Of a stretch of 64,000 bases of DNA, positions 1,311 to 38,532 are shown piece by piece; positions within the stretch are counted from its first letter, which is position 1, and every line of letters begins with the position of its first letter. This DNA comes from Phycisphaerae bacterium (GTDB lineage: Bacteria; Planctomycetota; Phycisphaerae; SM23-33), in the NCBI GenBank assembly GCA_049975485.1, contig JBNGDC010000001.1:144996-208995 (forward strand), given 5' to 3'. The notes under the pieces are model-generated. The model had not been told where the DNA came from. It made no database searches and was given only the letters and a program-made list of their open reading frames with translations. The translations under genes were made by a program, and so were the position numbers.

Positions 1311-1346
1311 TTGCTTCGCGTCGCCAAGGCAGCAAAACAGCAGTCT

Positions 1347-2812: not shown

Positions 2813-2818
2813 CGGGCG

Positions 2819-3024: not shown

Positions 3025-3076
3025 ACCGCGCCGACAAGCGCGTTGCTACGCCTGTTTCATTACCCGCTCACTGGCG

Positions 3077-3120: not shown

Positions 3121-3232
3121 TTAATTGGTTAGCCAGTCATCCTCGCGAGGCGAGCAAACAAGTTGCTCGCCCTGCGGCCTATCACGATTGTTCGATAACT
3201 TGTCGGGCAAGTATGACCGACCGACGAGCTAT

Positions 3233-3270
3233 CTATTGCCTATTGCCTATTGCCTGCTGCCTACTGCCTA
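3233..3270. repeat. tandem heptanucleotide repeat (CTATTGC/CTRCTGC) x5.5, equal to (AGGCARY)n on the thuA sense strand
   Basis: CTATTGC CTATTGC CTATTGC CTGCTGC CTACTGC CTAC. It abuts the thuA stop codon. It is the reverse complement of the 20021-20097 array. Confidence 0.7.
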
Positions 3271-3996
3271 CTCTTCGAACCAGCCCATGGGTTTGTTGGG
3301 CGCGCCCAGCGGCATGGTGCCGGTCGGTGCTATCCAGCGGACGGCGTTGGTAATCACACGCAGCACCTCCGGCTGCTTGTAGATGGGGAAGGTCTCGTGC
3401 CCGGGCCGGAAGTAGAACACCTTGCCCGCGCCTCGCGTCCACACACAGCCGCTGCGGAATACCTCTCCGCCGGCGAAGCTGGAGATGAATATCTGTTCGT
3501 CCGGCTGGGGGATGTCGAAGTGCTCACCGTACATCTCGGTGTGCTCGATGATTATGCACTCGCCGATGCCCTCGACGATCGGATGCCCCGGCCGCGTGAC
3601 CCACAGCACCTCGCGCTCGCCGACCTCGCGCCACTTGAGCTGACAGGTGGTGCCCATCAAGCGCTTGAACGGCTTGGAGAAGTGCCCGCTGTGCAGCACT
3701 ATCAGCCCCATGCCCTGAAGCACCCGCTTCTGCACGCGGTCCACGATTTCGTCGGACACTTCCCCGTGTGCCATGTGGGCCCACCAAAGCAGCACGTCGG
3801 TGTCGTCGAGCTTGTCGTCCGTAAGGCCGTGCTCCGGTTCGTCGAGCGTAGCGGTGCCGGCCGTGATGCCTTCCTGCGCATTCAGATGCTCGGCGAGGCA
3901 GGCGTGGATGCCGTCGGGGTAAACCTTCCTTACGGCCTCGTCCTTCTTCTCGTGGCGAAATTCATTCCAGACTGTGACGCGAATGTCCTTACCCAT
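3268..3996 (-). CDS. ThuA-like (trehalose utilisation / class-I glutamine amidotransferase-like) protein
   Basis: 242 aa. The N-terminus [27 protein letters not shown] and overall length fit the ThuA family. Confidence 0.55.
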
Positions 3997-4342
3997 GTCT
4001 TATGTTTCCTTATGAGGAGTTTCGGCAAACGGTTTTCTGCGGATGTCCGGCAAAGTTACCGCGCGGCCGGGGCGGTTCAAGGCAAAACCGGACTTTTAGT
4101 CCCTGTTCGCCGCCCTGGTTGGCGTCTGGGCGCTTGAAACGCTGAAATTTACGAAACTTTCGCACCATCGACGTGTCGAAGTAGTAGTAACGGCTGAAGG
4201 CGGCTACGCGGCCAAAGCGACCTGCGCGCATAGTCGCCGATGGAGTATAATAGAAAAAGTTGCGGCCCCGGCCGCGGATGAAACGCCCTCATGGCTCCTG
4301 ACCAATCCCGTTACAGAGACGGGGCCTGTTGAAACTCAGCAA

Positions 4343-6892: not shown

Positions 6893-7017
6893 AAGCGGAC
6901 GACGACGAAACTATTGAGGGTGCCCAATAATTCGTGGCAAGTGTCTTGAATACCTGTGACAGTACTGGAGAACTATTTGGGGGCGATAGGTATATTCCGG
7001 TGCCGCACAACACTGTC

Positions 7018-7099
7018 GCCCCTTCGGGGCTGAGTGCATTATTGCCCCGGACTTCCGGGGGCTGACGCCCCCGGCTATTTCCTGTCGGCCCTTCGGGCC
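7018..7099. other. cluster of GC-rich tetraloop hairpins between convergent genes
   Basis: GCCCC-TTCG-GGGC (7018-7030), CCCCGG-ACTT-CCGGGG (7045-7060), GGGGGC-TGAC-GCCCCC (7057-7072, overlapping the previous one) and GGCCC-TTCG-GGCC (7087-7099). No U-tracts follow. Confidence 0.4.
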
Positions 7100-7182
7100 T
7101 GTTGTGATGCACATGCACTGACTGTCAGCCGGCTCAAGTATGCGTTCGAAGTATTGGGCATCCTCAAACTATTAATCGCAAG

Positions 7183-7869
7183 CTACGGTCCCTCCGCCTC
7201 CCTCAGTGCGCGGGCGAAGTCGGCGTTCTCGGGTTTCTTCAGGAGTTGCTGGAATTCGTCTTCGGACACGCGGTCCGTGCTGCCGTCGGAGGTCAGCACA
7301 TTGCGATAGTCCTCGTGGTTGCCTCGCAGGTCGCACATCACCAAAGTGTGGGGTGGCGCATCCGGCGCGGGCGGATGATAGAAATAGTCGCTCCGGCGGT
7401 CGGACACGGCCGAGGGACATCGAAAAATATCCCGATCGTAAAGGTAACGCTCCTCTACCAGGATGTCCAGGTCCGCCGGGAAGTGGTCGTCATATTCGAA
7501 TGAGTATTCATCCATGGCCCTGGCTATGGCCGACAGGTTCGTCAGGCAAACTATTCTCCGGGCCTGTTCTCTGGTTCGCGAAAGCACAGGTAGCATGAGG
7601 GCAGGCATAACCACGGTGGGCAGCAGAAGACCCAGCACGATACCGGCAACGGCCATGCCTGTCCTGGGGCGCTTCTGCACCAGTGAGACGATTCCCAGGA
7701 CCACGGCCGTCAGCCCCAGAGCCGCACCGAGTATCGGGATGACGGCGGTAATGCCGAAGATCAGGGCCGCCAGGGGCAGCCCACGGCCCGTGTTGCGTCT
7801 GTAGGACGGTGTTCCGTGTATCGGTGGTGGCGTCTGCTGCGGGGGCTGTTGAGGTGGAATCTGCGACAT
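7183..7869 (-). CDS. membrane protein: Pro/Gln-rich N-terminus, DUF4190-like two-TM anchor, DUF1559-like (planctomycete pseudopilin-type) C-domain
   Basis: LAALIFGITAVIPILGAALGLTAVVLGIVSLVQKRPRTGMAVAGIVLGLLLP is the DUF4190 pattern. RIVCLTNLSAIARAMDEY and RGNHEDYRNVLTSDGS resemble DUF1559 core motifs. The C-terminal 24 aa (EFQQLLKKPENADFARALREAEGP) are identical to the downstream paralog. Confidence 0.55.
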   Translation of the reverse strand: MSQIPPQQPPQQTPPPIHGTPSYRRNTGRGLPLAALIFGITAVIPILGAALGLTAVVLGIVSLVQKRPRTGMAVAGIVLGLLLPTVVMPALMLPVLSRTREQARRIVCLTNLSAIARAMDEYSFEYDDHFPADLDILVEERYLYDRDIFRCPSAVSDRRSDYFYHPPAPDAPPHTLVMCDLRGNHEDYRNVLTSDGSTDRVSEDEFQQLLKKPENADFARALREAEGP

Positions 7870-7907
7870 TGCTGTTCTCCCATTCTGTTTGTCCGGCCGC
7901 TGGGAAG

Positions 7908-8573
7908 CTACGGTCCTTCCGCTTCTCTCAGCGCGCGGGCGAAGTCGGCGTTCTCCGGTTTCTTCAGCAGCTGCTGGAACTCCTGCTCGCTGACCATACG
8001 GACTTTGCCGTTGGCGTGGACCACATTGCGTCCGCTACGGTGGTTGCCTCGCCAGTCGCATGCCAGAAGTGTCATCGGCGAAGCGTCGTCGGCAGGCGGA
8101 TGGTAGAAGTAATCCGACTCTCTCGGGCTTTGTGACAGAGGGCAGCGAATGCTGTCCGGCCCCAGAAGATCCTCATCGATGAGGACCTGCAGGTTGCCTG
8201 GCCAGACGTCCGAATAATCAGTCCTATAGATGTTCGCCGCTTCGGCGATGGTACGAAGGTTGGCACCACAGGTTATTTCTTTCGCAAGCTCTTTGGCTTC
8301 CTGCCTGGCCTGGTATATCTCAACCGTAACGGTTGTCGTCAGAGTGGGCAGTGCGAAGCCCAACACAAGCCCAGCTATGGCCATGCCCCGTCTTGGTCGC
8401 TTCTGCACCAGCGAGACGATACCCAGTGCGATTGCTGCCAGACCCGGTAATACGCCTGCGAAAGGAATGACCGCAAAGATTCCGAGAATAAGTGCCGCCT
8501 TGGGTGGCCCCTTGCCCTTCTTAAGCCGGTAATGCGAAGGGCCCCGCGCAGGTTGAGGCGGAGTCCGGCTCAT
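7908..8573 (-). CDS. paralog of 7183-7869 (DUF4190 anchor plus DUF1559-like domain)
   Basis: It has the same architecture (ALILGIFAVIPFAGVLPGLAAIALGIVSLVQKRPRRGMAIAGLVLG; ITCGANLRTIAEAANIY; RGNHRSGRNVVHANGKV). The 3-prime 80 nt are nearly identical in DNA to 7183-7262. Confidence 0.55.
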   Translation of the reverse strand: MSRTPPQPARGPSHYRLKKGKGPPKAALILGIFAVIPFAGVLPGLAAIALGIVSLVQKRPRRGMAIAGLVLGFALPTLTTTVTVEIYQARQEAKELAKEITCGANLRTIAEAANIYRTDYSDVWPGNLQVLIDEDLLGPDSIRCPLSQSPRESDYFYHPPADDASPMTLLACDWRGNHRSGRNVVHANGKVRMVSEQEFQQLLKKPENADFARALREAEGP

Positions 8574-8701
8574 GTCAGTTCTCCCATAGGTCAGATTCGT
8601 CAGCCCTGCGTCCGGAAACGCGCTACCAGACTTGGCCCGCGGCGCGAAATCAGCCCCATGTGCCGCACATACAAATAAGTACCAAGTTCGGTGGGGCTTG
8701 T

Positions 8702-10513
8702 CTATCCGCGTTTCTCGTCGTCGCGCTGCTCATCCGGTGGTGGCGGCGGAGGTGTTTGCGGTCCCTGCTCATGGGGCGAAGACTCGCTTTGCTGTTCGCC
8801 GCCTTGTTGTGCAGGTGGAGGGGGAACCCGCCGGGCGTCCACGACGGCGGTCCGCCCGAGCACGTCGCCTATCCGCTGGCGGTAGGGGTTGAACAGCGGC
8901 CAGAGCAGCAGCACCGGGATCGGCAGCAGCCAGAGCGTCTCGATGACCTTCGAGATGTTCCGCAGCAGCACCCCCCGCAGGTCGGGGCGCCGGCCGTTGT
9001 TGCCGCAGACGCGCAGCCCCAGCGCCATCTTGCCCAGCGTCGCCGAGAAGCGAAGCTCCATGAACACGCAGTAGGCGATGAACAGCAGGATCACCGAAAT
9101 CAGCACGTACGCGGACTCCGCCGTCATGGAGTATTCCTGCGCGGTGGTCCATATGTTCTCCACGTCGCGCATCTGTTCCAGCGGAACCTGTGTCACCATC
9201 AGCACCCCGCCGAGAAGATGGAAGGGCAGGGCGTCGATGGCGGCGGCCGCCAGACGCTTCGTCAGCGCCCCCGGCCGGAGTGTCTGGGGCAGCGTGAAGA
9301 TCCTGTCCGTCGATTTCGGCCTGAGGAATAGCAGCGGCACGAACATCGCGATTGCGATGCCCCACATGAAATACTCCATGATGGCCTGACCGCTGGTGTC
9401 CGGCGGCTGCCGGGCGAAGATGTCCAACTCGCCCCGCAAGACGGACCGGCCGCTGGTGTCGGACGTAATCAGCACGTACTTGCCGTCGATGCCGGCAACC
9501 ACGGCCACCTGGTCGCCGAGTCGCGACGCCAGGGGCGTTCTGTCGGCGTCGATGGTGAGTTCCTGCTCATCCATCCGCAGCGGCTGGACGCTCATCTGCT
9601 CATCCGCCCGCCAGGTGGCAAGGAGCAGCCGTTTCTTGCCGGTCTGTTCGTCGTCAACGGTCAGTACTATGCGCGGCCGCCCGGTGAGAGTGAGCATGCC
9701 GGCGACGTGGGCGGCGGAGGCCGTTTCGCCCAGCGGCAGCTCCCGCCAGTCTTCCTGCTGCGCTGAAACGAAGAGGCGATTCGGCCGGCCGTCGGTCGGC
9801 GCCAGCAGGACGTACATCAGCCCGTCGGCGACCGTGGCGAAGACACGGCCGTTCTCCGTAGCGATATCACCCAGCCAGTGCCACTGACTGCCGCGACTCT
9901 GAAAGACACCCAGCCGGATGTGTGTCGGCTCCCGGGGTTCGGCAGGGGCGGTTGTCGTAGTCGGGTGCTCGTCGGCGGGGGCCGTCGCGGTGGTGGTGTC
10001 CGCCCCGGCAGGGGCGGTGGAGGAGGTGGTGGGTTCTCTGACCGGCAGCGCGACCACGGCGGCCACCGAGCCGGAGTTACCGCCGTGCAGTCCCTCCGCC
10101 CGGCACATCGCCAGCGGGCGAGCGTCTTCGTCCCATCGCTCGTGCGACGGATATGGCAGTATGGTCCGCTCGCCGTCGATGGTGTAAAGCTGATAAGCGC
10201 GAGGGTCCGCCAGCAGCAGCTGCAACTGCGGGCCTGTCGCCACACCGGCGGCCGGCGGCTCGGTGAGTTTTTCACGCGCAACATAACGTGCGGCCCACTC
10301 CCACTTTTCGCCGGCGGGCCGGACTACCACGCCATAGCGGCCTTCGCTGTCGGGGTGGACAAGCCAGAGGGCATGCTCATTGCCGGTGAGTATGCTCGGT
10401 CGCTCAGCCGCGGCGGTAGTGGTGGCGTCTTCACCGTCGGAGGCGGCCACACACGCACCGGCGGCCGCGATGCACAGCAGCGTCGATATGGTACGAACAC
10501 GCCGCAAGCTCAC
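8702..10513 (-). CDS. RDD-family membrane protein with a large N-terminal extracytoplasmic domain
   Basis: N-terminal signal peptide. The C-terminal region has a multi-TM RDD signature (RLAAAAIDALPF...YRQRIGDVLGRTAVVD) and a Pro/Gln/Glu-rich tail. Its start overlaps the upstream gene stop by 4 nt. Confidence 0.6.
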   Translation of the reverse strand: MSLRRVRTISTLLCIAAAGACVAASDGEDATTTAAAERPSILTGNEHALWLVHPDSEGRYGVVVRPAGEKWEWAARYVAREKLTEPPAAGVATGPQLQLLLADPRAYQLYTIDGERTILPYPSHERWDEDARPLAMCRAEGLHGGNSGSVAAVVALPVREPTTSSTAPAGADTTTATAPADEHPTTTTAPAEPREPTHIRLGVFQSRGSQWHWLGDIATENGRVFATVADGLMYVLLAPTDGRPNRLFVSAQQEDWRELPLGETASAAHVAGMLTLTGRPRIVLTVDDEQTGKKRLLLATWRADEQMSVQPLRMDEQELTIDADRTPLASRLGDQVAVVAGIDGKYVLITSDTSGRSVLRGELDIFARQPPDTSGQAIMEYFMWGIAIAMFVPLLFLRPKSTDRIFTLPQTLRPGALTKRLAAAAIDALPFHLLGGVLMVTQVPLEQMRDVENIWTTAQEYSMTAESAYVLISVILLFIAYCVFMELRFSATLGKMALGLRVCGNNGRRPDLRGVLLRNISKVIETLWLLPIPVLLLWPLFNPYRQRIGDVLGRTAVVDARRVPPPPAQQGGEQQSESSPHEQGPQTPPPPPPDEQRDDEKRG

Positions 10514-11448
10514 GGATCAACCCCTCGGGCCTCAAGCTCGGCATCCACCTGGAACACCGGGATATCGCCGGGCAGGAATCTGCGGAAACCCGTCGCCGCC
10601 CGCGACCAGCGGTCCTCGGCGGTCATGTCGCTGAGCACGAGGTGCACGCTGCTGCGCCGCCGCGGCCAGCTTATGCGGATGTCCGTGGGCATTTCCGGCG
10701 GCGTCTGGCGCCCGGTATCGGCGATGGGGCGGTAGCGGTCCAGCTCCGCCGTCATTACTCGTTCGCCGTTGTTGTCGAAGAGGTTCACGCGGAAAGGCCG
10801 GCGCGGCTCCTCGTCCGACCAGCGGAAATACATCTCGCGTCTGAACAGGATCTTCCCGGTAACCGCCTGGCGGTCGATGTAGCTTACCACGTACGCGCAC
10901 GGGTCGCGGGACAGCGTCACGGCGGCCACCGGCAGCGTGGTGAAGTCGTCGGGAAGCTCCGAGATGCTCAGGACGCTGACAAGCTGGTTGGGGTCCAGCG
11001 GAAGCTGCTCCACGCCGGGGGCGCCGGCGTATTCGTGCCGGCCGAACCACGCCTGGCCGTGCTCGCCGAAGCGGTACCACAGGTAGTACACGCCCTCCTC
11101 GACGTTGCTGCCGAGTCGGAACAGCTCGACGGCCGCCGTCTCGCGCCCGATGAGGACAAAGTCGTGCGGACCGGTCGCCTCGGGACCCTTGCCCAGCAGC
11201 AGCAGGGCGTTGGGTGACGCCAGCGGGCTTGTGGAGCCCCAACTGAAGCTCCGCCCGTCCTCGTCGGTGAGCGTTACGGCCAGTCTGGCTCGCGCCCAGA
11301 GCCGCGGGACGGCCGATGCGTTGCCGTTGTATTCGGCGACGAGCGTCTCGACGGGCACGGCCGTCTCCGGGCAGGTCGGCGGGCAGCCGCACAGCGCCAC
11401 GGCCAGGCCGTAAAGCGGAAGCAGGGCGATTCTGCGGGAGGCGATCAC
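10510..11448 (-). CDS. lipoprotein, function unknown
   Basis: Signal peptide with lipobox (LAVALCGC). 312 aa with no recognizable catalytic motif. It is translationally coupled (4-nt overlaps) to both neighbours. Confidence 0.5.
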   Translation of the reverse strand: MIASRRIALLPLYGLAVALCGCPPTCPETAVPVETLVAEYNGNASAVPRLWARARLAVTLTDEDGRSFSWGSTSPLASPNALLLLGKGPEATGPHDFVLIGRETAAVELFRLGSNVEEGVYYLWYRFGEHGQAWFGRHEYAGAPGVEQLPLDPNQLVSVLSISELPDDFTTLPVAAVTLSRDPCAYVVSYIDRQAVTGKILFRREMYFRWSDEEPRRPFRVNLFDNNGERVMTAELDRYRPIADTGRQTPPEMPTDIRISWPRRRSSVHLVLSDMTAEDRWSRAATGFRRFLPGDIPVFQVDAELEARGVDP

Positions 11449-24959: not shown

Positions 24960-25532
24960 ATGACCGGACAGCCCGACACGCCGTCGCCGCAGCACGAGGT
25001 GCTGCTGTGCGTTACGGGGGGTATTGCGTGCTACAAGTCGGCGGACCTGGCGAGCAAGCTGGTGGCCGACGGCTTTGGCGTGACGGTGGCGATGAGTGAG
25101 GCGGCCGAGAGGTTTGTCGCGCCGCTTACGTTCCAGACGCTCACGCGGCGACGGGTTTACACCTCGCTGTGGCAGTCCACGGAGCAGTATGAATCCACGC
25201 ATATCTCAACGTCGGACCTTGCGGAGCTGATGATAGTCGCGCCGGCGACGGCGGACACTATCGCCAAGCTGGCGACAGGCCTGGCCGACGATATTGTCTC
25301 CACGCTGCTGCTGGCCCGCCCGGCCGATTGCCCGCTGCTGCTGGCGCCGGCCATGAACACGCGCATGTGGCAGGCGCCGCCGACCCAGGCCAACATCGAA
25401 AAGCTCAAGGGCTGGGGCGTGCATACGGTAGGCCCGGCCGAGGGGCGGCTTGCATGCGGCGACACGGGACCCGGCAGAATGGCCGAGCCGGCGGACATAC
25501 TCGCCGCAGCCAAAAAGCTTCTGAGCGGGTAG
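24960..25532 (+). CDS. coaC: phosphopantothenoylcysteine decarboxylase (flavoprotein, CoaC half of CoaBC)
   Basis: LLCVTGGIACYK, MIVAPATADTIAKLATGLADD and PAMNTRMW motifs. It is encoded separately from coaB. Confidence 0.85.
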   Translation: MTGQPDTPSPQHEVLLCVTGGIACYKSADLASKLVADGFGVTVAMSEAAERFVAPLTFQTLTRRRVYTSLWQSTEQYESTHISTSDLAELMIVAPATADTIAKLATGLADDIVSTLLLARPADCPLLLAPAMNTRMWQAPPTQANIEKLKGWGVHTVGPAEGRLACGDTGPGRMAEPADILAAAKKLLSG

Positions 25533-25563: not shown

Positions 25564-25761
25564 ATGAAGGTCCGAGAAGTGATAAAATGGCTTCAGGATG
25601 ATGGATGGGTGCAGGTCGTGCAGCGAGGAAGCCATCGCCAGTTCAAGCATCCTGTGAAGCCCGGGAGAGTAACGGTTGCCGGTAATCCCTCCCACGACCT
25701 TGCCCCTGGAACACTGAACAGCATCGTGAAGCAGGCCGGACTTAAGGGTCGCAAGCCATGA
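25564..25761 (+). CDS. hicA: HicA-family mRNA interferase toxin
   Basis: 65 aa: MKVREVIKWLQDDGWVQVVQRGSHRQFKHP...GTLNSIVKQAGL, matching the YcfA/HicA fold signature. It overlaps hicB by 4 nt. Confidence 0.8.
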   Translation: MKVREVIKWLQDDGWVQVVQRGSHRQFKHPVKPGRVTVAGNPSHDLAPGTLNSIVKQAGLKGRKP

Positions 25762-25976
25762 ACTACCTCGTGGTCATCGAGAAGGCGGACGGGAATTACT
25801 CGGCCTATGTACCCGACCTGCCCGGATGCGTCGCCACAGGGGAGACGCTGGAGGAGGTCCGTTCGGCCGTCCGCGACGCGGTGGAGATGCACCTTGCCGG
25901 GCTTCGCGAGGATGGTCAGGAAATTCCGCCGGCACGGGCCATGGGCGAAGTGATCGAAGCCGGCTCCGGTCAATAA
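25758..25976 (+). CDS. hicB: HicB-family antitoxin (UPF0150)
   Basis: 72 aa: YLVVIEKADGNYSAYVPDLPGCVATGETLEEVRSAVRDAVEMHL. Confidence 0.8.
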   Translation: MNYLVVIEKADGNYSAYVPDLPGCVATGETLEEVRSAVRDAVEMHLAGLREDGQEIPPARAMGEVIEAGSGQ

Positions 25977-26130: not shown

Positions 26131-26763
26131 ATGCGGATACTCGTAACAGCCGGTCCCACGCGCGAGCCGATCGACTCGGTTCGGTTCATCACCAACGCCT
26201 CCAGCGGACGCATGGGCTGCGCGGTGGCGTCGGCCGCTGTCGAAGCGGGTCACGACGTGACGCTTCTGCTCGGTCCGTGCCCGGCCGAGCCGCCCGCCGG
26301 CTGCGAGGTGCTACGCTTTATGACGGCCGCGGAACTGAAGCGACTGCTTGAAGAGCACTTCCCCGCCTGCGACGCGCTGGTGATGGCGGCGGCCGTTGGA
26401 GACTTCACGCCCGAAAGACCGGCCGTTGGCAAGCTGCGGCGTTCGTCGGGACCGGTGGAGCTTCGACTGCTGCCTACCGACGACCTGCTCGCCGGCGTTG
26501 CCGCAGGCAAACGACCGGGTCAGAGAATCGTCGCCTTTGCCGTGGAAGCCGGCGACGAGGACGCGATGTCCGCCGCGGCCAGGCGCAAGCTCACCGCCAA
26601 GGGGGCCGATTTCATCGTGGTCAACTCTCCGGAGGCAATGAGCGCCGAGACCAGCCGTGCAGCCATCCTCACCGCCGACGATGTCCTGCTGCCCTGGGGC
26701 GAGCGGACCAAAACGGAGCTGGCGGCGGAGATAGTCAAACTACCGGCGACGGGCGGGAATTGA
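26131..26763 (+). CDS. coaB: phosphopantothenate--cysteine ligase (CoaB half of CoaBC)
   Basis: ILVTAGPTREPIDSVRFITNASSGRMG, AAAVGDF, KADFIV-type motifs. It sits 600 bp downstream of coaC, with hicAB in between. Confidence 0.8.
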   Translation: MRILVTAGPTREPIDSVRFITNASSGRMGCAVASAAVEAGHDVTLLLGPCPAEPPAGCEVLRFMTAAELKRLLEEHFPACDALVMAAAVGDFTPERPAVGKLRRSSGPVELRLLPTDDLLAGVAAGKRPGQRIVAFAVEAGDEDAMSAAARRKLTAKGADFIVVNSPEAMSAETSRAAILTADDVLLPWGERTKTELAAEIVKLPATGGN

Positions 26764-26844: not shown

Positions 26845-27675
26845 TTACTGACCCACAAGCTCTTCGCGGCGCTGTCTCAGCAGGGGCTTTTTATCCTCGG
26901 GCATGTCCGGCTCGGCCAGGAGCTTGTCCAGCCCTTCGACGAAGAAGTCCCTGGCGAAATCGGTGCTGAAGACGCGCTGGTCCTCGGGCCTGGTTTCGAT
27001 GGTCTTGAGAAAACCCTCGAAGTCCTGAAAGTAGCTGCCGTAGATGTGAAAGCTGTCGGCGATGTGTATGTACTCGCCCGGCTCTACGCCCACCTGGCGG
27101 GCGATATCCTCCTGAAGCTCGGTGAAGGCGTACATGTTCATGAAGGCGGCCTTGAAGGCGTCGTTGCTGCGCATGTGCGCGTTCATGTGCAGCCGCCCGT
27201 CGGAAATGCGGAACCACAGCCGCTGGAGGCACGCGGGGTCGTTGATGTTCAGGTCGTTCCACACCTGCCAGGTAACCGCCTGGGCGCGGCGGGTGTGTCC
27301 GACGCTCTTGAGTTTCTCAACGACGGCCGCGAGCTGGTCGATACGCTCGCCGTCCGGCAGGGCGTAGCTGCGCAGGCGCTCGTGGTAGGTGTATTCCCAC
27401 TTGCCGGCGGCGGGGTCTATCCAGTGGTCGTGCACGCCGTAGAGGACTTCGGCGCGGTATTTTTCCAGGTCGTCCAGTCCGCCGGGGAACGCCCGGTGTA
27501 CGCGCGGCTCCCGGAAGGGGTGGGTCACATGAACCACGGCCGTCACGTCCCGACTGTTCGGGTCATCCGGACGGTCGTACTCGGTGGGGAAGCTCTCGCC
27601 CTCGCGCCAGCAGGCGACGACGGCCCGCTCCCAGCCGACGGGGAGCGTCTCGGCGACGACGTGTATCGACTTCAT
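26845..27675 (-). CDS. thymidylate synthase (ThyA) superfamily protein, divergent
   Basis: The C-terminal 170 aa align to the ThyA core: the catalytic Cys is in NDPACLQRLWF (PCH becomes ACL), and HMRSNDAF, FMNMYAFTEL and IHIADSFHIY correspond to YQRSCDVF, FNIASYALL and HTLGDAHLY. The N-terminal 110 aa are unlike canonical ThyA. The start is set at 27675 (GGAGG RBS). Confidence 0.6.
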   Translation of the reverse strand: MKSIHVVAETLPVGWERAVVACWREGESFPTEYDRPDDPNSRDVTAVVHVTHPFREPRVHRAFPGGLDDLEKYRAEVLYGVHDHWIDPAAGKWEYTYHERLRSYALPDGERIDQLAAVVEKLKSVGHTRRAQAVTWQVWNDLNINDPACLQRLWFRISDGRLHMNAHMRSNDAFKAAFMNMYAFTELQEDIARQVGVEPGEYIHIADSFHIYGSYFQDFEGFLKTIETRPEDQRVFSTDFARDFFVEGLDKLLAEPDMPEDKKPLLRQRREELVGQ

Positions 27676-27749
27676 CCTGCCTCCATGCTCGGCGGCACAG
27701 ACCGCAGACATCCTTGTACGCGCGGCGACGGCGTCGGTCAAGCCGTCGT

Positions 27750-28628
27750 TTACAACTTCAGCGATTTGATGATGGAACCGACCGGCTCGGCCCGGTTGAG
27801 GCAGTAGAAATGCAGTCCGGGCGCGCCGCGGTCCAGCAGGTCCTGCGCCTGGCTGACGGCGTAGTCCGTGCCGCGGGCGATCGTCGCGTCGGCGTCGCCC
27901 TTTATAGGATCGAAGATTTCGTGGATGGTATGCGGCACGGTTGCGCCGCAGTTGGCCGCGAAATCCACCAGCTTCTCATAGTCCGTCACGGGCAGCAGGC
28001 CCGGGATAATACGAAGCGTCACGCCCGCCTCACGCACGCGCTGCAGGTACTCCCAGTACAGCATGTTCTCGAAGAAGAACTGCGTGATGCAGTAGTCGGC
28101 CCCGGCGTCCTGTTTCATCTTCAGGAAGTGACTGTCCACGTCCAGGTTCGGCGCCAGGGGGTGGCTTTCGGGAAAGCCCGCCACGCCGATGGAGAAGTGG
28201 TCGTCATGCTCGGAGCGGGTCATCTCCACGAGCTGGTAAGCGTAACGGGGCTGGTCCGGACGGAACTGGTAATCGCGTTCGTGTTGCGGCGGGTCGCCCC
28301 GCAGCGCCATGAGGTTCCGAACGCCGGCGTTTTTCATGCGGTCCAGCTCCCGGCGGATGGAATCCCAAGTGTGCTTGATGCAGGTAAAATGGTGCACCAC
28401 GGGTATGTCAAATTGCTGGATAAGTTCCTCGGCCGTCCGCAGTGTGTTCTCCGCGGTCGTACCGCCGGCTCCGTAGGTGACGCTGAACCAGTCGGCGCCC
28501 AGGTCCACGAGCTTCTCGGCCGTATCGAACAGCCGATCCCGACCCTTGTCGGTCTTGGGCGGGAAGAACTCGAACGAAAGCGTTCGCTGCTTTTGTGCGA
28601 ATACGTCGGTTATCTTGTCCTGCGGCAT
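27750..28628 (-). CDS. metF: 5,10-methylenetetrahydrofolate reductase
   Basis: FEFFPPKT, VTYGAGG, ALRGDPP, ITQFFF and HFYCLNRAE match E. coli MetF along the full length. Confidence 0.9.
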   Translation of the reverse strand: MPQDKITDVFAQKQRTLSFEFFPPKTDKGRDRLFDTAEKLVDLGADWFSVTYGAGGTTAENTLRTAEELIQQFDIPVVHHFTCIKHTWDSIRRELDRMKNAGVRNLMALRGDPPQHERDYQFRPDQPRYAYQLVEMTRSEHDDHFSIGVAGFPESHPLAPNLDVDSHFLKMKQDAGADYCITQFFFENMLYWEYLQRVREAGVTLRIIPGLLPVTDYEKLVDFAANCGATVPHTIHEIFDPIKGDADATIARGTDYAVSQAQDLLDRGAPGLHFYCLNRAEPVGSIIKSLKL

Positions 28629-28782
28629 ATGGCTATGACTCCTTGTGATCGCGAAATCGATGCGAATCGCCGGGCGTTTTCCGTCCGGTCACGCCTGAGG
28701 CCCACGAAGATCGGCCGGCGATACCGGGCACGGACACCCCGCTATCTGGACTGGAGCGACCCGAAAGTATATAGCCCGACGG

Positions 28783-29526
28783 TCAGTACTCGCAAGGTGG
28801 TTCTTTGCCCACCTCCCGGAGCAGGGCGTCGGCCGCTGAGATCTGCTGTTCGGTGCCTTCCACGCCCACCCATAGTGCCCCCTCGGCCCCATGTACGCCG
28901 CCCGCGGCCAGCAGTCGCAGGCACGCGCCGGTGAGCAGTTCGACTGCTTCGAACTCGGTGAACGCCTCGCCGGGCAGAGGCAGCAGGCCCGGGCCCTCAC
29001 CCCGGCCGGGGTCGATCTCGGCGGCCAGCGAGTCCACGTCCTCGAATATGCGCTTTTCCAGCCCGACCGGCACGATGAGCTTTGTACCGCGACCCGCCAC
29101 GGCCGCGATTACGGCGCCGGCGGTGCCGGCCTGTGGGTGGCCTATCAGCACGGCGGGACGGCCCCTGGGGTCCAGGGCGTTCGCTCCCTTGAGGATCAGA
29201 TCGTCCGGGCCGAGATCGTCGGCGACGTCGAATATCTGCTTGCCCTTGAGCCACTTGCCGTCGCGTATGATTACGTCGCCGGCGAATTCGCCCCCGTCGG
29301 CCTTGACGTGGGGCGGGCAGACCACCCCGCGCCGGAAACCCTTTGCAGAGAACCCATCGGCCTCCCCGAGGGTGGCAAGCACCTCCTGTGCGACGTAAGC
29401 GTTTGTTGTGCCGGCTACTATGGCGAGCGTTCCGGATCGCAGCGCGGCCGTGACTTGCGGGTGCTCTGCCAGGGCCTTCGCAATGAGCCGCTTTCCCGCC
29501 GCAGGTGTTATGACGTACTGCTTCAT
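28783..29526 (-). CDS. hypothetical protein (248 aa, Gly/Ala-rich, no family assigned)
   Basis: MKQYVITPAAGKRLIAKALAEHPQVTAALRSGTLAIVAGTTNAYV.... The start is chosen at an internal ATG with an AAGGCGAAGGA RBS. It lies between the BMC shell gene and metF. Confidence 0.4.
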   Translation of the reverse strand: MKQYVITPAAGKRLIAKALAEHPQVTAALRSGTLAIVAGTTNAYVAQEVLATLGEADGFSAKGFRRGVVCPPHVKADGGEFAGDVIIRDGKWLKGKQIFDVADDLGPDDLILKGANALDPRGRPAVLIGHPQAGTAGAVIAAVAGRGTKLIVPVGLEKRIFEDVDSLAAEIDPGRGEGPGLLPLPGEAFTEFEAVELLTGACLRLLAAGGVHGAEGALWVGVEGTEQQISAADALLREVGKEPPCEY

Positions 29527-29676
29527 ATCTTCGGTCCTTCGCCTTTGATATTGGGACGAATGTGGAACGGCATTCCTCAAAACGCGGCCGGGATGAACAC
29601 GGGTAACCGCAGTTCTTACTGCTTATAGCTGTTGTCATCAACCACGTTCCTGCTGCCGCAGGAGCGTGGCAGCAGG

Positions 29677-30264
29677 CTAGATGAATTCGCTGAACAACTC
29701 GCGGTTCGGTCTGGCGATGACCACTTCCGAGACCAGCAGGCCTCGCTCACGGGCCTCGGCGGCGCCGGCGCGTACGCCCGATTCGCAGTCCGCGATGGTC
29801 CCGGTCATCAGGCAGTAGCCCTTCCCGCCCAATGCCATCGCCACGTGTATGCGGAACAGCGTCACGCGTGCCGCCTTGGCGGCAGCGTCGGCGGCCGCGA
29901 CTACGCTCACGCCGCTGAACGTCTCCAGCACTCCCATCGCTTCGACTCTCTCGTCCTCGAGCACCACGGATTGGCCAAGTGCCGGAAACACGCCCGGATG
30001 GACGTTGGGGATCACGAGCTGGTCTATGATGGACTCTCCGGCGGCCTCCACGCCGGCGTTGACCGCCGCCCGGACGTCGCTGACGCCGCCGCCGATGACG
30101 ATGAAGTACTTGCCCGAGCAGATGGTCCTTGCCAGCAGTATCTCGACGTTGGCGGCGTCCAGCATTGTGTCCTGTACGCGGTATCCGATGCCGATGCTGG
30201 TAAGCTCCACCGCTCCTATGCTGCGGGGTGCCCCGGATGCGTGGTTTTGGCTTGCCTCGGCCAT
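29677..30264 (-). CDS. bacterial microcompartment shell protein, tandem BMC-domain (BMC-T, PduT-like)
   Basis: Two canonical BMC (Pfam00936-type) domains: IGAVELTSIGIGYRVQDTMLDAANVEILL...VIGGGVSDVRAAVNAGVEAAGESIIDQLVIPNVHPG, and MGVLETFSGVSVVAAADAAAKAARVTLF...LMTGTIADCESGVRAGAAEARERGLLVSEVVIARPN. Both align residue-by-residue to PduA/CcmK. 195 aa, like PduT. Confidence 0.8.
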   Translation of the reverse strand: MAEASQNHASGAPRSIGAVELTSIGIGYRVQDTMLDAANVEILLARTICSGKYFIVIGGGVSDVRAAVNAGVEAAGESIIDQLVIPNVHPGVFPALGQSVVLEDERVEAMGVLETFSGVSVVAAADAAAKAARVTLFRIHVAMALGGKGYCLMTGTIADCESGVRAGAAEARERGLLVSEVVIARPNRELFSEFI

Positions 30265-30285
30265 GATTATCCTCGAATGCTCTGG

Positions 30286-31614
30286 TTAGCTCTCGATCGT
30301 GACGGTCGATTCATCCACTGCCGTTACCGTGCCGCCGATGGAAGCGTGTATGGGCGCGCCCAGGGCGGGCTTGCCGTCCTTTATGGGCGGGCTTGCGATA
30401 AGGTCGCCCACCGACACCTTCTGTCCGCTCTTGACCTTCGGCTCGCAGGGGGCGCCCACGTGCTGTTTCAGCGGCAGCTTGACCGAAGCCGGCTGCGGGG
30501 ACTCATCCAGCAGGGGACCGACGTTGTGGAAGCCGTCAAGCCCCAGCTTGGTCATCAGTCGTCGCATGGGGGCCTTGCGGTTGCTCATGTGCAGCTCCGG
30601 CCGTCGCGGGTTGAACGGCGGGTCCGTCCACTTGCGCCCTTCTTCGGCGAGGCGACGCTTGTTGACCGCGCAGACGTCCTTGGGGTCGAGGTCCTCCGGG
30701 CAGGCGTACATGCTGCACAGGTTGCATTCGCAGCAGAAGCTCGTGCCGATGACGTTCGGCTCACCGACGAGGTTGAACTCCAGCGAACGCATTGCCTTGT
30801 GCGGCTCGATGGGATGCCCCAGCAGATAACGCGGGCAAAGCTCGGTGCAGAAACTGCACTGGTCGCAGGCGCTGCGGCCGATGCGTTCGCGCTGACTGGC
30901 CGTGCGGGTGTAGCGCCTCGTTACAGTGTGCTCGCCGCCGAGCACAATCACCGCGCCGGTGGTCTTGAGCACCGGCTCGTCGTGGTCCTCGGACAACCGG
31001 CCCATCATCACGCCCCCGACGATGTAATGCGGGTCGGGTACCGTCGCTCCGCCGGCGGCCGCGACGCAGGCCGAAAGCGGGGTGCCCACAGGCACTCGCA
31101 GGGTGCAGGGGTTCTCCACAGCCCCGGCGACGGATATGAACTTCTCCGTCACGGGCCTTTGGGGTGAGGCGGCCACATTAAGCGCGGTCTCGACGTTCAC
31201 GACCACCGCGCCGACGTTCAGCGGAATGCCGCCAGGCGGAACCACCCGTCCGAGCACCTCGTAAACCAGTATGAACTCATCCCCGGCGGGGTAGGCGTCG
31301 CTCAGCGGGGCGATCTCCATGCCTTCGGGAAGCTTGCCCCGCAGGTGGTCTATGACGTCGGTGTACTTGGCCTTTATGCCGATTACTGCCCGCTCGGCTC
31401 CGACCATATCTTTCACTGCGGCAAAACCGGCAAGCACTTCGTCGGCAAAGTGGTGCAGAACCTGTTTGTCCTTATGCAGCAGGGGTTCGCACTCGGCGGC
31501 GTTCAGCAGGACCGTATCGGCCTTTGCCGAGACTTTTACGTGGGTGGGAAACCCCGCGCCTCCGGCGCCGACGACGCCTGCGGAGAATACCGTTTCAACT
31601 GTAACCGGTTGCAT
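30286..31614 (-). CDS. RnfC/PduS-like NADH-binding Fe-S flavoprotein
   Basis: GAGGAGFPTHVK (SLBB/FMN site of NuoF/RnfC) and two 4Fe-4S ferredoxin motifs (CDQCSFCTELCP and CCECNLCSMYACP). The start is at the second ATG (AGGAG RBS). The C-terminal roughly 70 aa form a barrel-sandwich-like domain. Confidence 0.75.
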   Translation of the reverse strand: MQPVTVETVFSAGVVGAGGAGFPTHVKVSAKADTVLLNAAECEPLLHKDKQVLHHFADEVLAGFAAVKDMVGAERAVIGIKAKYTDVIDHLRGKLPEGMEIAPLSDAYPAGDEFILVYEVLGRVVPPGGIPLNVGAVVVNVETALNVAASPQRPVTEKFISVAGAVENPCTLRVPVGTPLSACVAAAGGATVPDPHYIVGGVMMGRLSEDHDEPVLKTTGAVIVLGGEHTVTRRYTRTASQRERIGRSACDQCSFCTELCPRYLLGHPIEPHKAMRSLEFNLVGEPNVIGTSFCCECNLCSMYACPEDLDPKDVCAVNKRRLAEEGRKWTDPPFNPRRPELHMSNRKAPMRRLMTKLGLDGFHNVGPLLDESPQPASVKLPLKQHVGAPCEPKVKSGQKVSVGDLIASPPIKDGKPALGAPIHASIGGTVTAVDESTVTIES

Positions 31615-31778
31615 GGGAACTCCTGGTGAAAGCTGCCGCGCATGGCGGGGCTGCATGAGGGAGGATACTGAATTGAAGGGACCCAGACAAGCGACCGGGC
31701 CGACATATTCGACGACCCGGACGCCCGGTTATCCGGCGACAGGAAAGCTGTGACCGCCTGGTTGTTATCGATGGGTTT

Positions 31779-32087
31779 TCAGGCCTGCGAAGACCGCTCC
31801 ATGCCCTGCTGGAGCTTATCTTTCATCAGCCGTCCGACCTTGAACTTGACCGTCCGTTTCGGCGGCACGTGGACGCGCTGGAGCGTCTTTGGGTTCTGGG
31901 CAATTCGCGCGGCGCGGTCCTTGGTCTCAAAGACGCCGAAGTCGCGGAACTCAAGTCGGTTGCCACGACCCAGCTCGTTGATTATCTCGTCCAGAAAGCT
32001 CTGGACGACCTGCTTGACCGCAACTCGCTTGATGCCGGTCTCGTCGGCAATGCGGTCAACCAACTCTTTCTTGGTCACCGTATGCAT
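31779..32087 (-). CDS. HU/IHF-family DNA-binding protein
   Basis: 102 aa: TKKELVDRIADETGIKRVAVKQVVQSFLDEI...RDFGVFETKDRAAR...NPKT, the bacterial histone-like fold. Confidence 0.8.
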   Translation of the reverse strand: MHTVTKKELVDRIADETGIKRVAVKQVVQSFLDEIINELGRGNRLEFRDFGVFETKDRAARIAQNPKTLQRVHVPPKRTVKFKVGRLMKDKLQQGMERSSQA

Positions 32088-32468
32088 GTAAGTCCCTTTC
32101 GCTGGTTATCAGCAACTGCTTGGCTTCCAGCGCCAACTCCGTGCCTGGCGGCACCCGGACCTGAATTAACAAGAAATGCGTGAGCTTCGTGCCGCAAGTT
32201 ATCCTAAGCACCAGACTTCGCGGAAACAAGCAAATTCCCTCGCGACAGTGTTGTTGCGCCGGGTGCCGCTTCCACCGCCGCCGGGCGGTTCGCCGCCCGA
32301 TTCTGCGACGTTCGTATCTCTATCATAGGCGTGCACATGGCTGCTTACCACTGTGACGAAGAGACTTCCGCAACTTTTATCCTGCTAACCGAGTCCCCTG
32401 ATGACTGTCTGCTTTCGGTGGAGACCATCCAAGGTGGACGGTCGAGGCCCTTTGAGGAGGTCGCAGCC

Positions 32469-32957
32469 ATGAGAGAAACACTGAGAAAACCGGTGCTCTG
32501 GGGGCTGGTCGGCCTGTTGGTGGTGTTGGTATCAGCGGTCGGTCAGGCCCGCGCCGACGACAGGGGACGTGGGCGTGAGCGGGAGATGGACCGTCGCGAC
32601 CGTGACGACAGAATCGTCATTTTCCGCGACAGAGACCGCTCGAGGCACCATGATGACGGTGACAGGGATCGCTTCAGGCGCTCGGATGATCACAGCCGCC
32701 GTCCGCCGTTCGTGCGGCACGACCGCCGGCCCGATCGGTCATCTCTGTACCATCGTCCGGTACCGCGCGACCGGGACGAGCGGCGACGCGTGACGTATCC
32801 GCACCATAGAACACAGCGGCGCATCACGACGAGGTACCTGGCGTATCCCCGCTTCCAGGTTTACACGCATCAGCCCGTATTCGTCCGCCATCGGATACTG
32901 AGGCCGCATCCGGTGCGCTCGGGTCTGAACTTCAGCATCATCATAGACCTGAGGTGA
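32469..32957 (+). CDS. secreted Arg/Asp-rich low-complexity protein
   Basis: GAGGAGG RBS 8 nt upstream. Signal peptide MRETLRKPVLWGLVGLLVVLVSAVGQARA. The body is dominated by RD/RDR repeats (DRGRGREREMDRRDRDDR...RDRDRSRHHDDGDRDRFRR). The longer track ORF start (32331) is rejected. Confidence 0.5.
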   Translation: MRETLRKPVLWGLVGLLVVLVSAVGQARADDRGRGREREMDRRDRDDRIVIFRDRDRSRHHDDGDRDRFRRSDDHSRRPPFVRHDRRPDRSSLYHRPVPRDRDERRRVTYPHHRTQRRITTRYLAYPRFQVYTHQPVFVRHRILRPHPVRSGLNFSIIIDLR

Positions 32958-36092: not shown

Positions 36093-37520
36093 ATGAGCGT
36101 ACTGACAAACGGCAGACGTGGCGTGGCTCGTAAGAAGCTGTACGATTTTTATAAGGAAGTCATTACGCCCAATGAGCACCTGAACCGGGGTATCGTCAGC
36201 TTTCAGGGGAATAAGCGGGAGCCGTTTTACCGGTGGTTTAAGTACAAGGAGGGGTTTTCCTCTCATCTAGTAGCGTATTTCCTTCAGTCCACAGGTTTAT
36301 CCGAAGGGACATTACTCGATCCGTTCGCCGGCGCGGGTACGTCGTTGTTCGCAGCTCGGGATTCCGGATGGCGGGCCTTGGGAATCGAATTGCATCCTGT
36401 GCCGCTTTTCGCGATAGAGGCACGTCTTGCTGGAGAATCCCTCGACGGGGCCCGCTTCAACCTGGCGGTCGAGAGGGTGGAGAACAGGGCGTACGAGAGA
36501 CAGCCGGAAGATAAACCGGGTTTTCCGCACCTTAACATCACCAGTGGCGCTTTCCCGCCCTTAAACGAGCAACGTCTTATGGCCTACTGGCATTACTGCC
36601 TGAGTCATGTGAAAGACCCGAGTGTGCGGAAGGTCCTGCAGTTTGCCGCGCTTTGTGTACTGGAGGATATAAGCTATACGAGGAAGGACGGTCAGTACTT
36701 GCGATGGGATGCTCGAAGTCCGAAAAAACGCGGTAAAGGCGCGTTTATCAAAGGGCAGATCGCTGATTTTCACGACGCAATCACGGCAAAGCTACGGATT
36801 ATCAGCTCGGACCTGAGGACCTTGTCCGGCAGCGGGCATTTGTTCAGGCCGACCAGACTGACACGCGGTCCGGTGGATATGTGGGAGGGGTCCTGCCTGA
36901 ATGTGCTTCCCGAAATGTCTTCGGATTCGGTGGACCTGGTTGTCACTTCGCCTCCTTACTGCAACCGCTATGACTATACGCGGACCTACGCCCTGGAGCT
37001 TGCATTACTCGGGCGAAACGAAGAGCAGGTGAAAGGGCTGAGGCAATCCCTTCTTTCCTGCACCGTTGAGAATCGCGCCAAGCGCGAGCAGATTAAGACG
37101 GCTTACGAAGCCCGGTCGGGGCGTGAGGCGTTTGATTTTGTAGAGCAATGCTTTGATTCGGTGGATGCATTGCATGAAGTGCTGGAGATTCTCGAAAGTT
37201 TCGGAAGGGACAATGCTCTCAATAACACAAATATCCCGCGAATGGTGCGGAATTATTTCTACGAGATGAGCTTCGTTATCTACGAGCTTGCTCGTGTTAT
37301 GCGGGCTGAAGGAAAGGTAGTTATGGTTAACGACAACGTTCGCTACGCCGGCGAGGAGGTGCCGGTTGACCTGATTCTGAGCGAACTTGCTCGACAGATG
37401 GGCTTTACCGTGGATAAGATATGGGTTCTGTCCAGAGGTAAGGGTAATAGCAGTCAACAGATGGGAATACATGGGCGAAGAGAGCTGCGAAAGTGCGTAT
37501 ATGTGTGGCAAAAGGAGTAA
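36093..37520 (+). CDS. site-specific DNA amino-methyltransferase (N6-A or N4-C), alpha-class motif order
   Basis: Motif I DPFAGAGTSLFAA (aa 77) and motif IV VVTSPPYCNRYDY (aa 289), with about 200 aa between them (candidate TRD). It lies in a low-GC island. Confidence 0.75.
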   Translation: MSVLTNGRRGVARKKLYDFYKEVITPNEHLNRGIVSFQGNKREPFYRWFKYKEGFSSHLVAYFLQSTGLSEGTLLDPFAGAGTSLFAARDSGWRALGIELHPVPLFAIEARLAGESLDGARFNLAVERVENRAYERQPEDKPGFPHLNITSGAFPPLNEQRLMAYWHYCLSHVKDPSVRKVLQFAALCVLEDISYTRKDGQYLRWDARSPKKRGKGAFIKGQIADFHDAITAKLRIISSDLRTLSGSGHLFRPTRLTRGPVDMWEGSCLNVLPEMSSDSVDLVVTSPPYCNRYDYTRTYALELALLGRNEEQVKGLRQSLLSCTVENRAKREQIKTAYEARSGREAFDFVEQCFDSVDALHEVLEILESFGRDNALNNTNIPRMVRNYFYEMSFVIYELARVMRAEGKVVMVNDNVRYAGEEVPVDLILSELARQMGFTVDKIWVLSRGKGNSSQQMGIHGRRELRKCVYVWQKE

Positions 37521-37560
37521 GCACACCCGTGCAACTATGGACGGCGGAGAGAGGTAAAGG

Positions 37561-38532
37561 ATGAGTAACGGGCCCCCCGGCTGCGATGACCAGTTGATTA
37601 AGGCGTTAACCGCTGCCTATACGGCTCGATCCAAACTTTTTCACGAAGGCGTGAGAAGCTGCAATATTGACCTGCTGATAGCGGAGATCGACGCTCTGGA
37701 TTCAGAGAGCTTGTGCTGGGATTTGGGTACTGTGGGAATCTCGGCGACGTCATGGAAGAAAGTGAAGGAAAGTGGAGCCGTTCCGGAGCAGGTCTTTGTT
37801 CATCCGGATGTGATCGTGAAGAACCCGTCCCTGATCGCCTACTACCGGAACATGGCGACCATATCAAACAAGGGGATGGGTCAGCTATTGTTCTCGACCA
37901 TCGGGTATGAGAAGGGCTCGGGTCGGCAGATCGGGCGGGACCGTGCCGAGGAGTTAAGCCGCGTGCTTAACGGAATCATATCCAACGTAATAGACTCGGT
38001 GGCCGACTACGACGTGCAGGTTAGCCGTAAGGCAATCCTAGCCGAAATCGGCGCCCAGCTTCAGGGCACTTGGGCGAATTTGATAGGTCAGGGGGCGACA
38101 AACCAAGTGGAGCAGATAATTCGGGATCACATCGAGCGGCAGGATCGCGGCAGTCGCATCGAATCAGGTAGGTATCATCTGTCAAACGAATGGAAAATCA
38201 TCTTTGGTACCGAACCGGACGTTGCGTTCTTTGACAAAGATGGTCTATTGCGAATGGCAATCGAGATAAAAGGCAGCCTCGACAAGGCCGGTGCACAAAC
38301 GCGCTATGGAGAAGCCAAAAAGTCGTTTGCCAAGGCAATCAAAGAGAACCCGCGCTGCCATACGATTTATCTTGCTTCTTGTTTCACAGAGGCCGTCGTG
38401 GAGCAAATCAAGGCGGATGGGCAGGTCCGTGAGTGGTTCAACCTGACGTCGATTCTATACGACGATGGCGAGCGAGCCCATTTTCTCGAATCGGTTTTTC
38501 ATGTTGTTGATGCGCCATATCGTACCGGCTGA
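37561..38532 (+). CDS. putative type II restriction endonuclease (PD-(D/E)xK-like), partner of the upstream MTase
   Basis: 323 aa. VAFFDKDGLLRMAIEIKGS contains a D...EIK catalytic-like motif. There is no other homology. It is co-directional with the MTase, 40 bp downstream, and has the same low GC. Confidence 0.45.
   Translation: MSNGPPGCDDQLIKALTAAYTARSKLFHEGVRSCNIDLLIAEIDALDSESLCWDLGTVGISATSWKKVKESGAVPEQVFVHPDVIVKNPSLIAYYRNMATISNKGMGQLLFSTIGYEKGSGRQIGRDRAEELSRVLNGIISNVIDSVADYDVQVSRKAILAEIGAQLQGTWANLIGQGATNQVEQIIRDHIERQDRGSRIESGRYHLSNEWKIIFGTEPDVAFFDKDGLLRMAIEIKGSLDKAGAQTRYGEAKKSFAKAIKENPRCHTIYLASCFTEAVVEQIKADGQVREWFNLTSILYDDGERAHFLESVFHVVDAPYRTG

Follow-up and report, generated by a model that had tools for sequence, protein, structure and literature searches.

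In a 64-kb window of a Phycisphaerae metagenome-assembled genome (the window being the whole stretch of DNA analyzed here), two adjoining minus-strand genes encode a PduS-like flavoprotein and a PduT-like shell protein with two bacterial microcompartment (BMC) domains. This pair is the already described MNdh/BMC-T^SE module in its already described satellite arrangement (PNAS 2024, PMC11626177). Very likely, the pair belongs to a metabolosome of the PVM (fucose/rhamnose) type and is a satellite of the main shell locus, which in this genome presumably lies outside the window. The genes for folate enzymes beside the pair are best regarded as ordinary neighbors and not as parts of a new organelle, with simple inherited synteny as the favored explanation.

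As defined in PMC11626177, MNdh is a four-domain NADH dehydrogenase (PF01512, PF10531, a 4Fe-4S dicluster domain and a PF13375 domain permuted to the C-terminus) and BMC-T^SE is a trimer with a cysteine in its pore; 97% of the loci described there have the two genes side by side. The pair in the window has the same makeup, consisting of a four-domain flavoprotein, an adjoining BMC-T gene and an aligned pore cysteine. An earlier note, made from the sequence alone, had described five genes running together on the minus strand, and open reading frames (ORFs) are indeed present at all five positions, each with a GC content at third codon positions (GC3, 0.76-0.86) typical of coding DNA in sequence of 62-65% GC. 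The identities that it had given to four of them (RnfC/PduS-like protein, tandem BMC protein, MetF and ThyA-family enzyme) were confirmed by Pfam and NCBIfam profiles. The five genes, and a sixth included for context, are as follows.

30286..31614, minus strand: MNdh, PduS-like NADH dehydrogenase (Pfam Complex1_51K, SLBB, Fer4_17 and C-terminal RnfC_N)
29677..30264, minus strand: BMC-T^SE, PduT-like tandem-BMC trimer (two BMC domains, 2.4e-38; top NCBIfam model eut_PduT)
28783..29526, minus strand: protein X, 247 aa (no Pfam or NCBIfam family; modeled eIF2B/MtnA/RpiA-like fold)
27750..28628, minus strand: MetF, stand-alone NAD(P)H-type methylenetetrahydrofolate reductase (MTHFR; Pfam MTHFR, 1.4e-83)
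26845..27675, minus strand: ThyA-family enzyme, archaeal type (Thymidylat_synt, 7.6e-20)
31779..32087, minus strand: HU-type DNA-binding protein (Bac_DNA_binding, 5.9e-28), outside the module

By comparison with relatives, MNdh probably starts with the methionine at 31614 (442 aa; ORF open to 31656) and the ThyA-like protein probably starts at 27675 (276 aa; ORF open to 27741); by the same comparison, protein X starts at 29526 (247 aa, MKQYV...; ORF open to 29580). No riboswitch or other RNA was found between the genes using Rfam. Consensus scans for promoters and terminators performed no better than on shuffled sequence and are uninformative, so the operon structure is judged from gene spacing.

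The flavoprotein and its shell protein

Pfam divides the flavoprotein into Complex1_51K (residues 24-162), SLBB (174-219), Fer4_17 (263-324) and RnfC_N (385-453). It is collinear with the Salmonella protein annotated as cobalamin reductase PduS over 92% of the length at 40% identity, whereas RsxC/RnfC-type genes match it less well, at 32% identity and in two pieces. Solved RnfC chains also align only as two permuted pieces, the C-terminal 65 residues of the query corresponding to the RnfC N-terminus. RnfC2 presumably has its RnfC_N domain at the N-terminus as well. An RnfC-type subunit was ruled out because the RnfC_N domain is C-terminal in the flavoprotein and its best annotated relatives are PduS; judged from its domain order, the protein is of the PduS/MNdh type with a permuted C-terminal RnfC_N. 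The motifs read from the sequence are GAGGAGFPTHVK, NAAECEP, CxxCxxCxxxCP and a second Cys cluster, and the predicted bound cofactors of the protein are FMN, NADH and two [4Fe-4S] clusters.

The BMC-T gene starts 21 bp past the MNdh stop codon on the same strand. Its assignment as a tandem BMC protein, made in the earlier note, holds: in addition to the two BMC domains listed above, the protein matches the Citrobacter PduT structure 3PAC end to end (2.5e-42) and the PduT structure 3N79 (7.9e-41). In the 3PAC alignment, the residues TICSGKY pair with the PduT Fe-S motif TICPGKF. Cys49 is kept in 83 of 84 sequences (the window and 83 related loci), and both Cys49 and the CSGK motif (codons 49-52, window 30109-30120, minus strand) are invariant in 37 aligned planctomycete homologs, with Ser replacing Pro in 37/37. 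From this alignment, the pore cysteine is a predicted [4Fe-4S] site and CSGK represents a variant of the published sequence motif. The analogy drawn earlier to PduS and PduT, linked by an Fe-S relay, is correct.

The edge motifs used in shell tiling are defined as a KAAN-type lysine (D-x-x-x-K) and (P/A)RPH (PMC8217296). In the alignment of homologs, the KAAx motif and the domain-2 lysine are retained family-wide; this domain-2 lysine, K130, is invariant, and domain 2 also keeps ARPN. The domain-1 tiling lysine is replaced by Asp (K36D, reading DAAN; codon 36, window 30157-30159) in the window and in loci L004, L008, L016 and L026 of the survey described below, and is retained in the other 79 of the 84 loci. 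The family as a whole is large and tightly conserved, with 1952 matches and 70-80% identity across Planctomycetota. Look-ups for sequences exactly equal to the BMC-T or to protein X of the window returned no record.

The chemistry expected of the pair is carried over from published homologs of Clostridium botulinum, for which reduction of the BMC-T^SE cluster by NADH is reported, and MNdh/BMC-T^SE is described as regenerating NAD+ inside metabolosomes that contain an aldehyde dehydrogenase (AldDH) (PMC11626177). By analogy, MNdh would be located on the lumenal face of the shell and would oxidize the NADH produced by an encapsulated AldDH. Electrons would then pass from FMN through the two [4Fe-4S] clusters of MNdh to a [4Fe-4S] cluster held in the pore by Cys49 of three BMC-T^SE chains, and from there to a cytosolic acceptor, whereby NAD+ would be regenerated inside the organelle. 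Protein X, MetF and the ThyA-like enzyme would be cytosolic housekeeping neighbors in this scheme, neither cargo nor partners.

Relatives of the pair and the link to PVM microcompartments

An alignment-based scan of metagenome contigs returned 485 relatives of the BMC-T, of which 80 loci were kept, and a scan of genome contigs with the BMC-T sequence by itself gave 5 loci; the survey set, which combines metagenome, genome and exact-match loci, comprised 84 non-redundant loci (designated by L numbers). MNdh is immediately upstream of BMC-T in 51 of the 60 loci with enough upstream DNA, and most family members are isolated two-gene units. Among the 41 loci with at least 3 kb of downstream DNA, a MTHFR gene within about 6.5 kb downstream of the pair was found in seven, protein X in five and shell genes in four; the remaining downstream neighbors are unrelated and often lie on the opposite strand. 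Since only the pair is kept across the 84 loci, the conserved unit is the pair and not the five genes.

All five are found together again only in L004, the nearest relative (87-95% identity), and the synteny of the five genes that the earlier note wished to see surveyed therefore does not extend beyond this locus in the 84 surveyed. ThyA follows in L004 alone; relatives at 60-75% identity have no ThyA here and either lack MetF or carry a substitute for it. Downstream of the pair they instead have protein X and a fusion of homocysteine methyltransferase with MTHFR (HcyMT-MetF, NF006396) in L008 and L101, a GltD/NfnB-like+MvhD flavoprotein with MetV and MetF in L013, L055 and L081, protein X alone in L039 and L042, and nothing related in L024. 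Adjacency to MTHFR genes is almost wholly confined to one Phycisphaerae-like subclade. A neighbor-joining tree of BMC-T places most of the loci linked to MTHFR or protein X near members that belong to main shell loci, although the alignment is short and the branching is not firm. The HU gene precedes the pair in 11 related loci, and in L097 it is followed directly by protein X without the pair, so that the pair appears to have been inserted into, or deleted from, an HU-X neighborhood.

Several further features occur around the pair in relatives. Two ORFs (about 170-229 aa and about 414-430 aa) are found between BMC-T and the MTHFR or X gene in L026 (8742-9872), L033 (5140-6384) and L056 (1022-2922), and neither has a Pfam, NCBIfam or PADLOC match. 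A gene for the methylene-tetrahydrofolate dehydrogenase/cyclohydrolase FolD and a DUF2520 gene are convergent to the pair/MTHFR unit in L013 (14905-15882, minus strand) and L039 (8756-9004, minus strand), a placement that indicates a small folate-gene neighborhood in several relatives that is independent of the shell genes. In L012/L053, binned as Thermodesulfobacteriota, a PocR-sensor histidine kinase and a LuxR-type response regulator precede the pair (491-10567), and a lone BMC-P gene is located 9.5 kb upstream of it. The PocR-sensor kinase was considered as a regulatory link and rejected, as no other locus has it.

The organelle to which the pair belongs is indicated by relatives in which pair and shell genes occur together. 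In L019, L038 and L084, whose BMC-T is 60-72% identical to that of the window, the orthologous pair directly heads a metabolosome locus. The fullest of the three stretches, L038, encodes DeoR, a PduL-type phosphotransacylase (PTAC), three BMC-H, acetate kinase (AckA), AldDH, three BMC-P and an RpiB-like protein, and L019 and L084 carry subsets of this set. Two other relatives (CAYLPJ010000005.1 and Ga0272441_10000481) share the layout of the window, GH35-HU-MNdh-BMC-T-X-MTHFR, and the contig of each also carries a full PVM locus (DeoR, PTAC, three BMC-H, AckA, AldDH, three BMC-P, RpiB-like protein and class II aldolase). In CAYLPJ010000005.1 this locus begins 12.6 kb beyond BMC-T on the same strand, an offset checked by sequence overlap, and in Ga0272441_10000481 the distance is 12.3 kb and the orientation is convergent. 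The presence of the PVM locus on the contig of the pair in these two relatives indicates that the pair is a PVM satellite in this clade and that the MTHFR genes merely lie between.

This arrangement agrees with what has been published. The main locus of the classic PVM type has no BMC-T (PMC4207490), 18 of the 20 PVM occurrences of the module are in satellite loci, and the MNdh sequences of Planctomycetes cluster together (both PMC11626177). A satellite shell gene, which had been raised earlier as one alternative, is the best reading given the PVM loci 12-13 kb away in two relatives. The earlier note had also considered that the BMC-T might be part of a canonical PVM-type BMC split by assembly; the link to such a BMC is borne out through the genome organization of relatives, and the split by assembly is not. 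In the genome analyzed here, the main PVM locus would be more than about 27 kb off one side of the pair, more than about 32 kb off the other, on another contig, or lost.

Folate enzymes, protein X and flanking genes

MetF fills the Pfam MTHFR model end to end (residues 5-290 of 292, without a terminal extension), so that it would need no redox partner and would have no room for an encapsulation peptide. It scores 289 bits against TIGR00676 [NAD(P)H], and its closest solved structures are those of Thermus (4e-62), eukaryotic catalytic domains and E. coli MetF. Its identity to the MTHFR domain of the L008 fusion HcyMT-MetF is only 25%, and tblastn gave no match to the MetVF-type MetF of L013 at E <= 1e-5. 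On these comparisons, MetF is a stand-alone NAD(P)H-type MTHFR, and a partner-dependent enzyme was rejected because it is closest to the self-sufficient type. No MetV was found in the window: PF12225 matched none of the five proteins, and tblastn with MetV of L013 was empty over the 64 kb.

The ThyA-like protein is probably the thymidylate synthase of this organism. Its top NCBIfam model is thy_syn_methano (methanogen-type ThyA), at 135 bits and under the cutoff of 174.55, and its alignment to solved ThyA spans the catalytic core. Compared by eye with E. coli ThyA, it keeps RR, the catalytic Cys (PACL), RSND (RSxD), the dUMP-specifying Asn and H-I-Y, and the C-terminal stretch after H-I-Y is presumably of about the same length as in E. 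coli. A role as dCMP hydroxymethylase was rejected because, by the same inspection, the protein retains the Asn that specifies dUMP along with the other catalytic residues. The earlier note had proposed looking for encapsulation peptides on MetF and the ThyA-like protein; no such extension was seen on either, though the inspection did not include a formal search for amphipathic helices.

Protein X has 100% identity to NCBI ACP5HU_00745, encoded on a contig of 213,750 bp, and belongs to a well conserved family of enzyme-like proteins with more than 2090 members that are 57-62% identical across phyla (Planctomycetota, Anaerolineae and others). In addition to the lack of a Pfam or NCBIfam family, phmmer found no match among PDB chains, and hhalign against E. 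coli RpiA gave a probability of 0.1. A confident structural model has an eIF2B/MtnA/RpiA-like fold, and the similarity is at the level of the fold only; on this model, protein X may be a sugar-phosphate-isomerase-like protein. The suggestion that this protein, given earlier as 248 aa, might be MetV-like was not upheld, as it has no PF12225 match, no Cys motifs and a different fold. Protein X is usually a lone gene in unrelated contexts, including those of L001, L095, L096 and L097.

The GC content of the window is about 61-67% outside one low-GC island. Upstream of the pair, the HU gene is followed by a plus-strand ORF without a family (32331-32957) and then by a GH35 beta-galactosidase gene. 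Downstream of the five genes lie convergent housekeeping genes (coaB, coaC, rpoZ, gmk, yicC, secG, tpiA and pheA). Between coaC (24960-25532) and coaB (26131-26763) is a hicA/hicB toxin-antitoxin pair (25564-25976, plus strand; HicA_toxin 4.8e-22, HicB_lk_antitox 7.1e-14); in L004 the coaC-coaB gap is 10 bp and lacks this insertion. The low-GC island (36093-38532, plus strand; GC 0.53 versus 0.61-0.67 elsewhere, GC3 about 0.61) encodes a DNA methylase (N6_N4_Mtase) and an XcyI-like restriction endonuclease, and is probably a type II restriction-modification system acquired horizontally.

Alternative readings and known systems

Several observations weigh against reading the pair as a PVM satellite among unrelated neighbors. 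A tblastn search with the PVM shell and core proteins of relatives found no BMC-H, BMC-P, AldDH, PTAC or aldolase in the 64-kb window, in agreement with the earlier note, which had seen no BMC-H or BMC-P genes nearby. The pore motif is CSGK, whereas CP(G/S)K is given as universally conserved in PMC11626177. The K36D replacement could mean that incorporation into the shell is altered or lost. Protein X follows BMC-T by only about 10-60 bp in relatives, and it shares 4 bp with HcyMT-MetF in L008 and is separated from it by 8 bp in L101, spacing that makes co-transcription plausible there. Finally, the slot downstream of the pair is occupied by three non-homologous kinds of MTHFR system within the same subclade (MetF alone, the HcyMT-MetF fusion, and GltD/NfnB-like+MvhD with MetV and MetF), and the divergent L081, with a BMC-T that shares no more than 66% identity with any other, has a GltD/MvhD-like gene 46 bp after BMC-T.

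Some of these points would fit an orphan module, in which the microcompartment has been lost in this lineage and the pair acts as a soluble, off-shell NADH:acceptor oxidoreductase. The lack of shell and core metabolosome genes in the window, the charge reversal K36D in five loci and the prevalence of isolated two-gene units in the family all speak for it. We nevertheless consider it quite unlikely. In L008, which carries K36D, a complete PVM locus is found 12.6 kb away on the contig of the pair, so that K36D by itself is no sign of organelle loss. The domain-2 lysine, the pore Cys and an overall identity of 70-90% have been maintained, and satellite placement is the published norm for the PVM type (PMC11626177).

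Another alternative is a functional coupling to folate metabolism. NADH electrons would pass via the pair to the reduction of methylene-tetrahydrofolate (methylene-THF), with MTHFR either as the cytosolic acceptor or as part of a soluble complex resembling MetF-MetV-RnfC2. Stated for the Phycisphaerae subclade, the MTHFR systems (GltD/NfnB-like+MvhD with MetVF, MetF, or HcyMT-MetF) would take electrons from BMC-T^SE, or the K36D trimer would act off the shell in a soluble NADH-dependent MTHFR complex. The frequency of MTHFR genes downstream of the pair (7/41 loci) is far over random expectation, and the occupation of one slot by three systems, the gene order in L081 and the tight spacing, including the overlap of X with MetF in L008, all point in this direction. 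FolD is nearby in L013 and L039, and the physiological external acceptor of BMC-T^SE is described as unknown in PMC11626177. However, no MTHFR gene is present in 34 of the 41 loci, and L039, L042 and L024 retain the pair without MTHFR nearby. L081 apart, the MTHFR-linked loci fall together in a single part of the BMC-T tree, and HU is present in most of them where enough upstream DNA is available; this grouping may reflect very few evolutionary events. Unrelated ORFs break the junction between pair and MTHFR in L026, L033 and L056. Every MTHFR variant, moreover, has its own entry point for NAD(P)H: the MetF of the window belongs to the NAD(P)H enzymes that act by themselves, and the GltD-like partner of L013 and L055 has an NAD(P)-binding domain of its own.

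Two more specific ideas touched on in the earlier note find no support in these results. Against a complex of MetF of the Acetobacterium woodii type stand the PduS-type rather than RnfC-type flavoprotein, the lack of MetV in the window and the stand-alone MetF. Against a BMC built around methylene-THF chemistry stand the absence of BMC-H and BMC-P from the window and the shell genes of relatives, which cluster with PVM enzymes. The broader claim that the pair is wired to the folate enzymes is likewise unsupported. Coupling is thus quite improbable both in its general form and, equally, in that stated for the Phycisphaerae subclade.

The least plausible reading, and a highly improbable one, is that the flavoprotein is a cobalamin reductase: the annotation of the homologous Salmonella PduS and the neighboring MetF and, in relatives, homocysteine S-methyltransferase-MTHFR fusion would be explained by it, but no B12-binding or adenosyltransferase gene is found among the genes examined around the cluster, the B12 role is argued in PMC11626177 not to apply outside PDU/EUT and NADH-driven reduction of the BMC-T^SE cluster is shown there, the obligatory pairing with a shell protein is left unexplained, and the adjacency to MTHFR is largely within one subclade.

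The locus is therefore taken as a clean example of the published PVM-type MNdh/BMC-T^SE satellite, which corrects the idea of a folate microcompartment. More generally, a lone BMC-T beside a PduS-like gene in Planctomycetota should be interpreted as a satellite that recycles NAD+ for a distant PVM locus, and not as evidence about the neighboring genes. The three MTHFR systems found beside the pair in one lineage make MTHFR a testable candidate for the cytosolic acceptor of BMC-T^SE electrons; if this were true, methyl-group synthesis would be the cytosolic outlet of the MNdh/BMC-T^SE relay.

Among known systems, the MTHFR of A. woodii (MetF-MetV-RnfC2) resembles the locus in having a gene for an RnfC-homologous NADH/FMN/Fe-S protein near a MTHFR gene, and MetV-MetF occurs in L013 and L055. 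It differs in that the flavoprotein here is of the permuted PduS type, MetF is of the Thermus/E. coli type with no MetV in the window, a shell gene stands between flavoprotein and MetF, and the linkage is not kept outside one subclade. With the PduS-PduT pair of the Salmonella and Citrobacter Pdu systems, the locus has in common the S-then-T gene order, 40% identity to PduS and matches to the PduT structures. In contrast to Pdu, the pair here is outside any pdu operon, neither a B12-dependent diol dehydratase nor an adenosyltransferase is encoded nearby, and the organelle associated with it in relatives is of the aldolase-based PVM type.

The closest likeness is to the MNdh/BMC-T^SE module itself, with which the pair shares the permuted four-domain flavoprotein, the adjoining pore-Cys tandem BMC, the planctomycete lineage and, in relatives, the satellite placement. 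The CSGK pore, the domain-1 Asp in the subclade and a main locus that is not in the window are the differences, and the folate genes beside the pair are not discussed in the available part of PMC11626177. With respect to the PVM fucose/rhamnose locus (Erbilgin 2014; Axen 2014, PMC4207490; Sutter 2021, PMC8217296), the window holds none of the PVM genes and the BMC-T is supplied from a satellite, whereas in relatives the canonical PVM set stands beside the same HU-pair-X-MTHFR arrangement.

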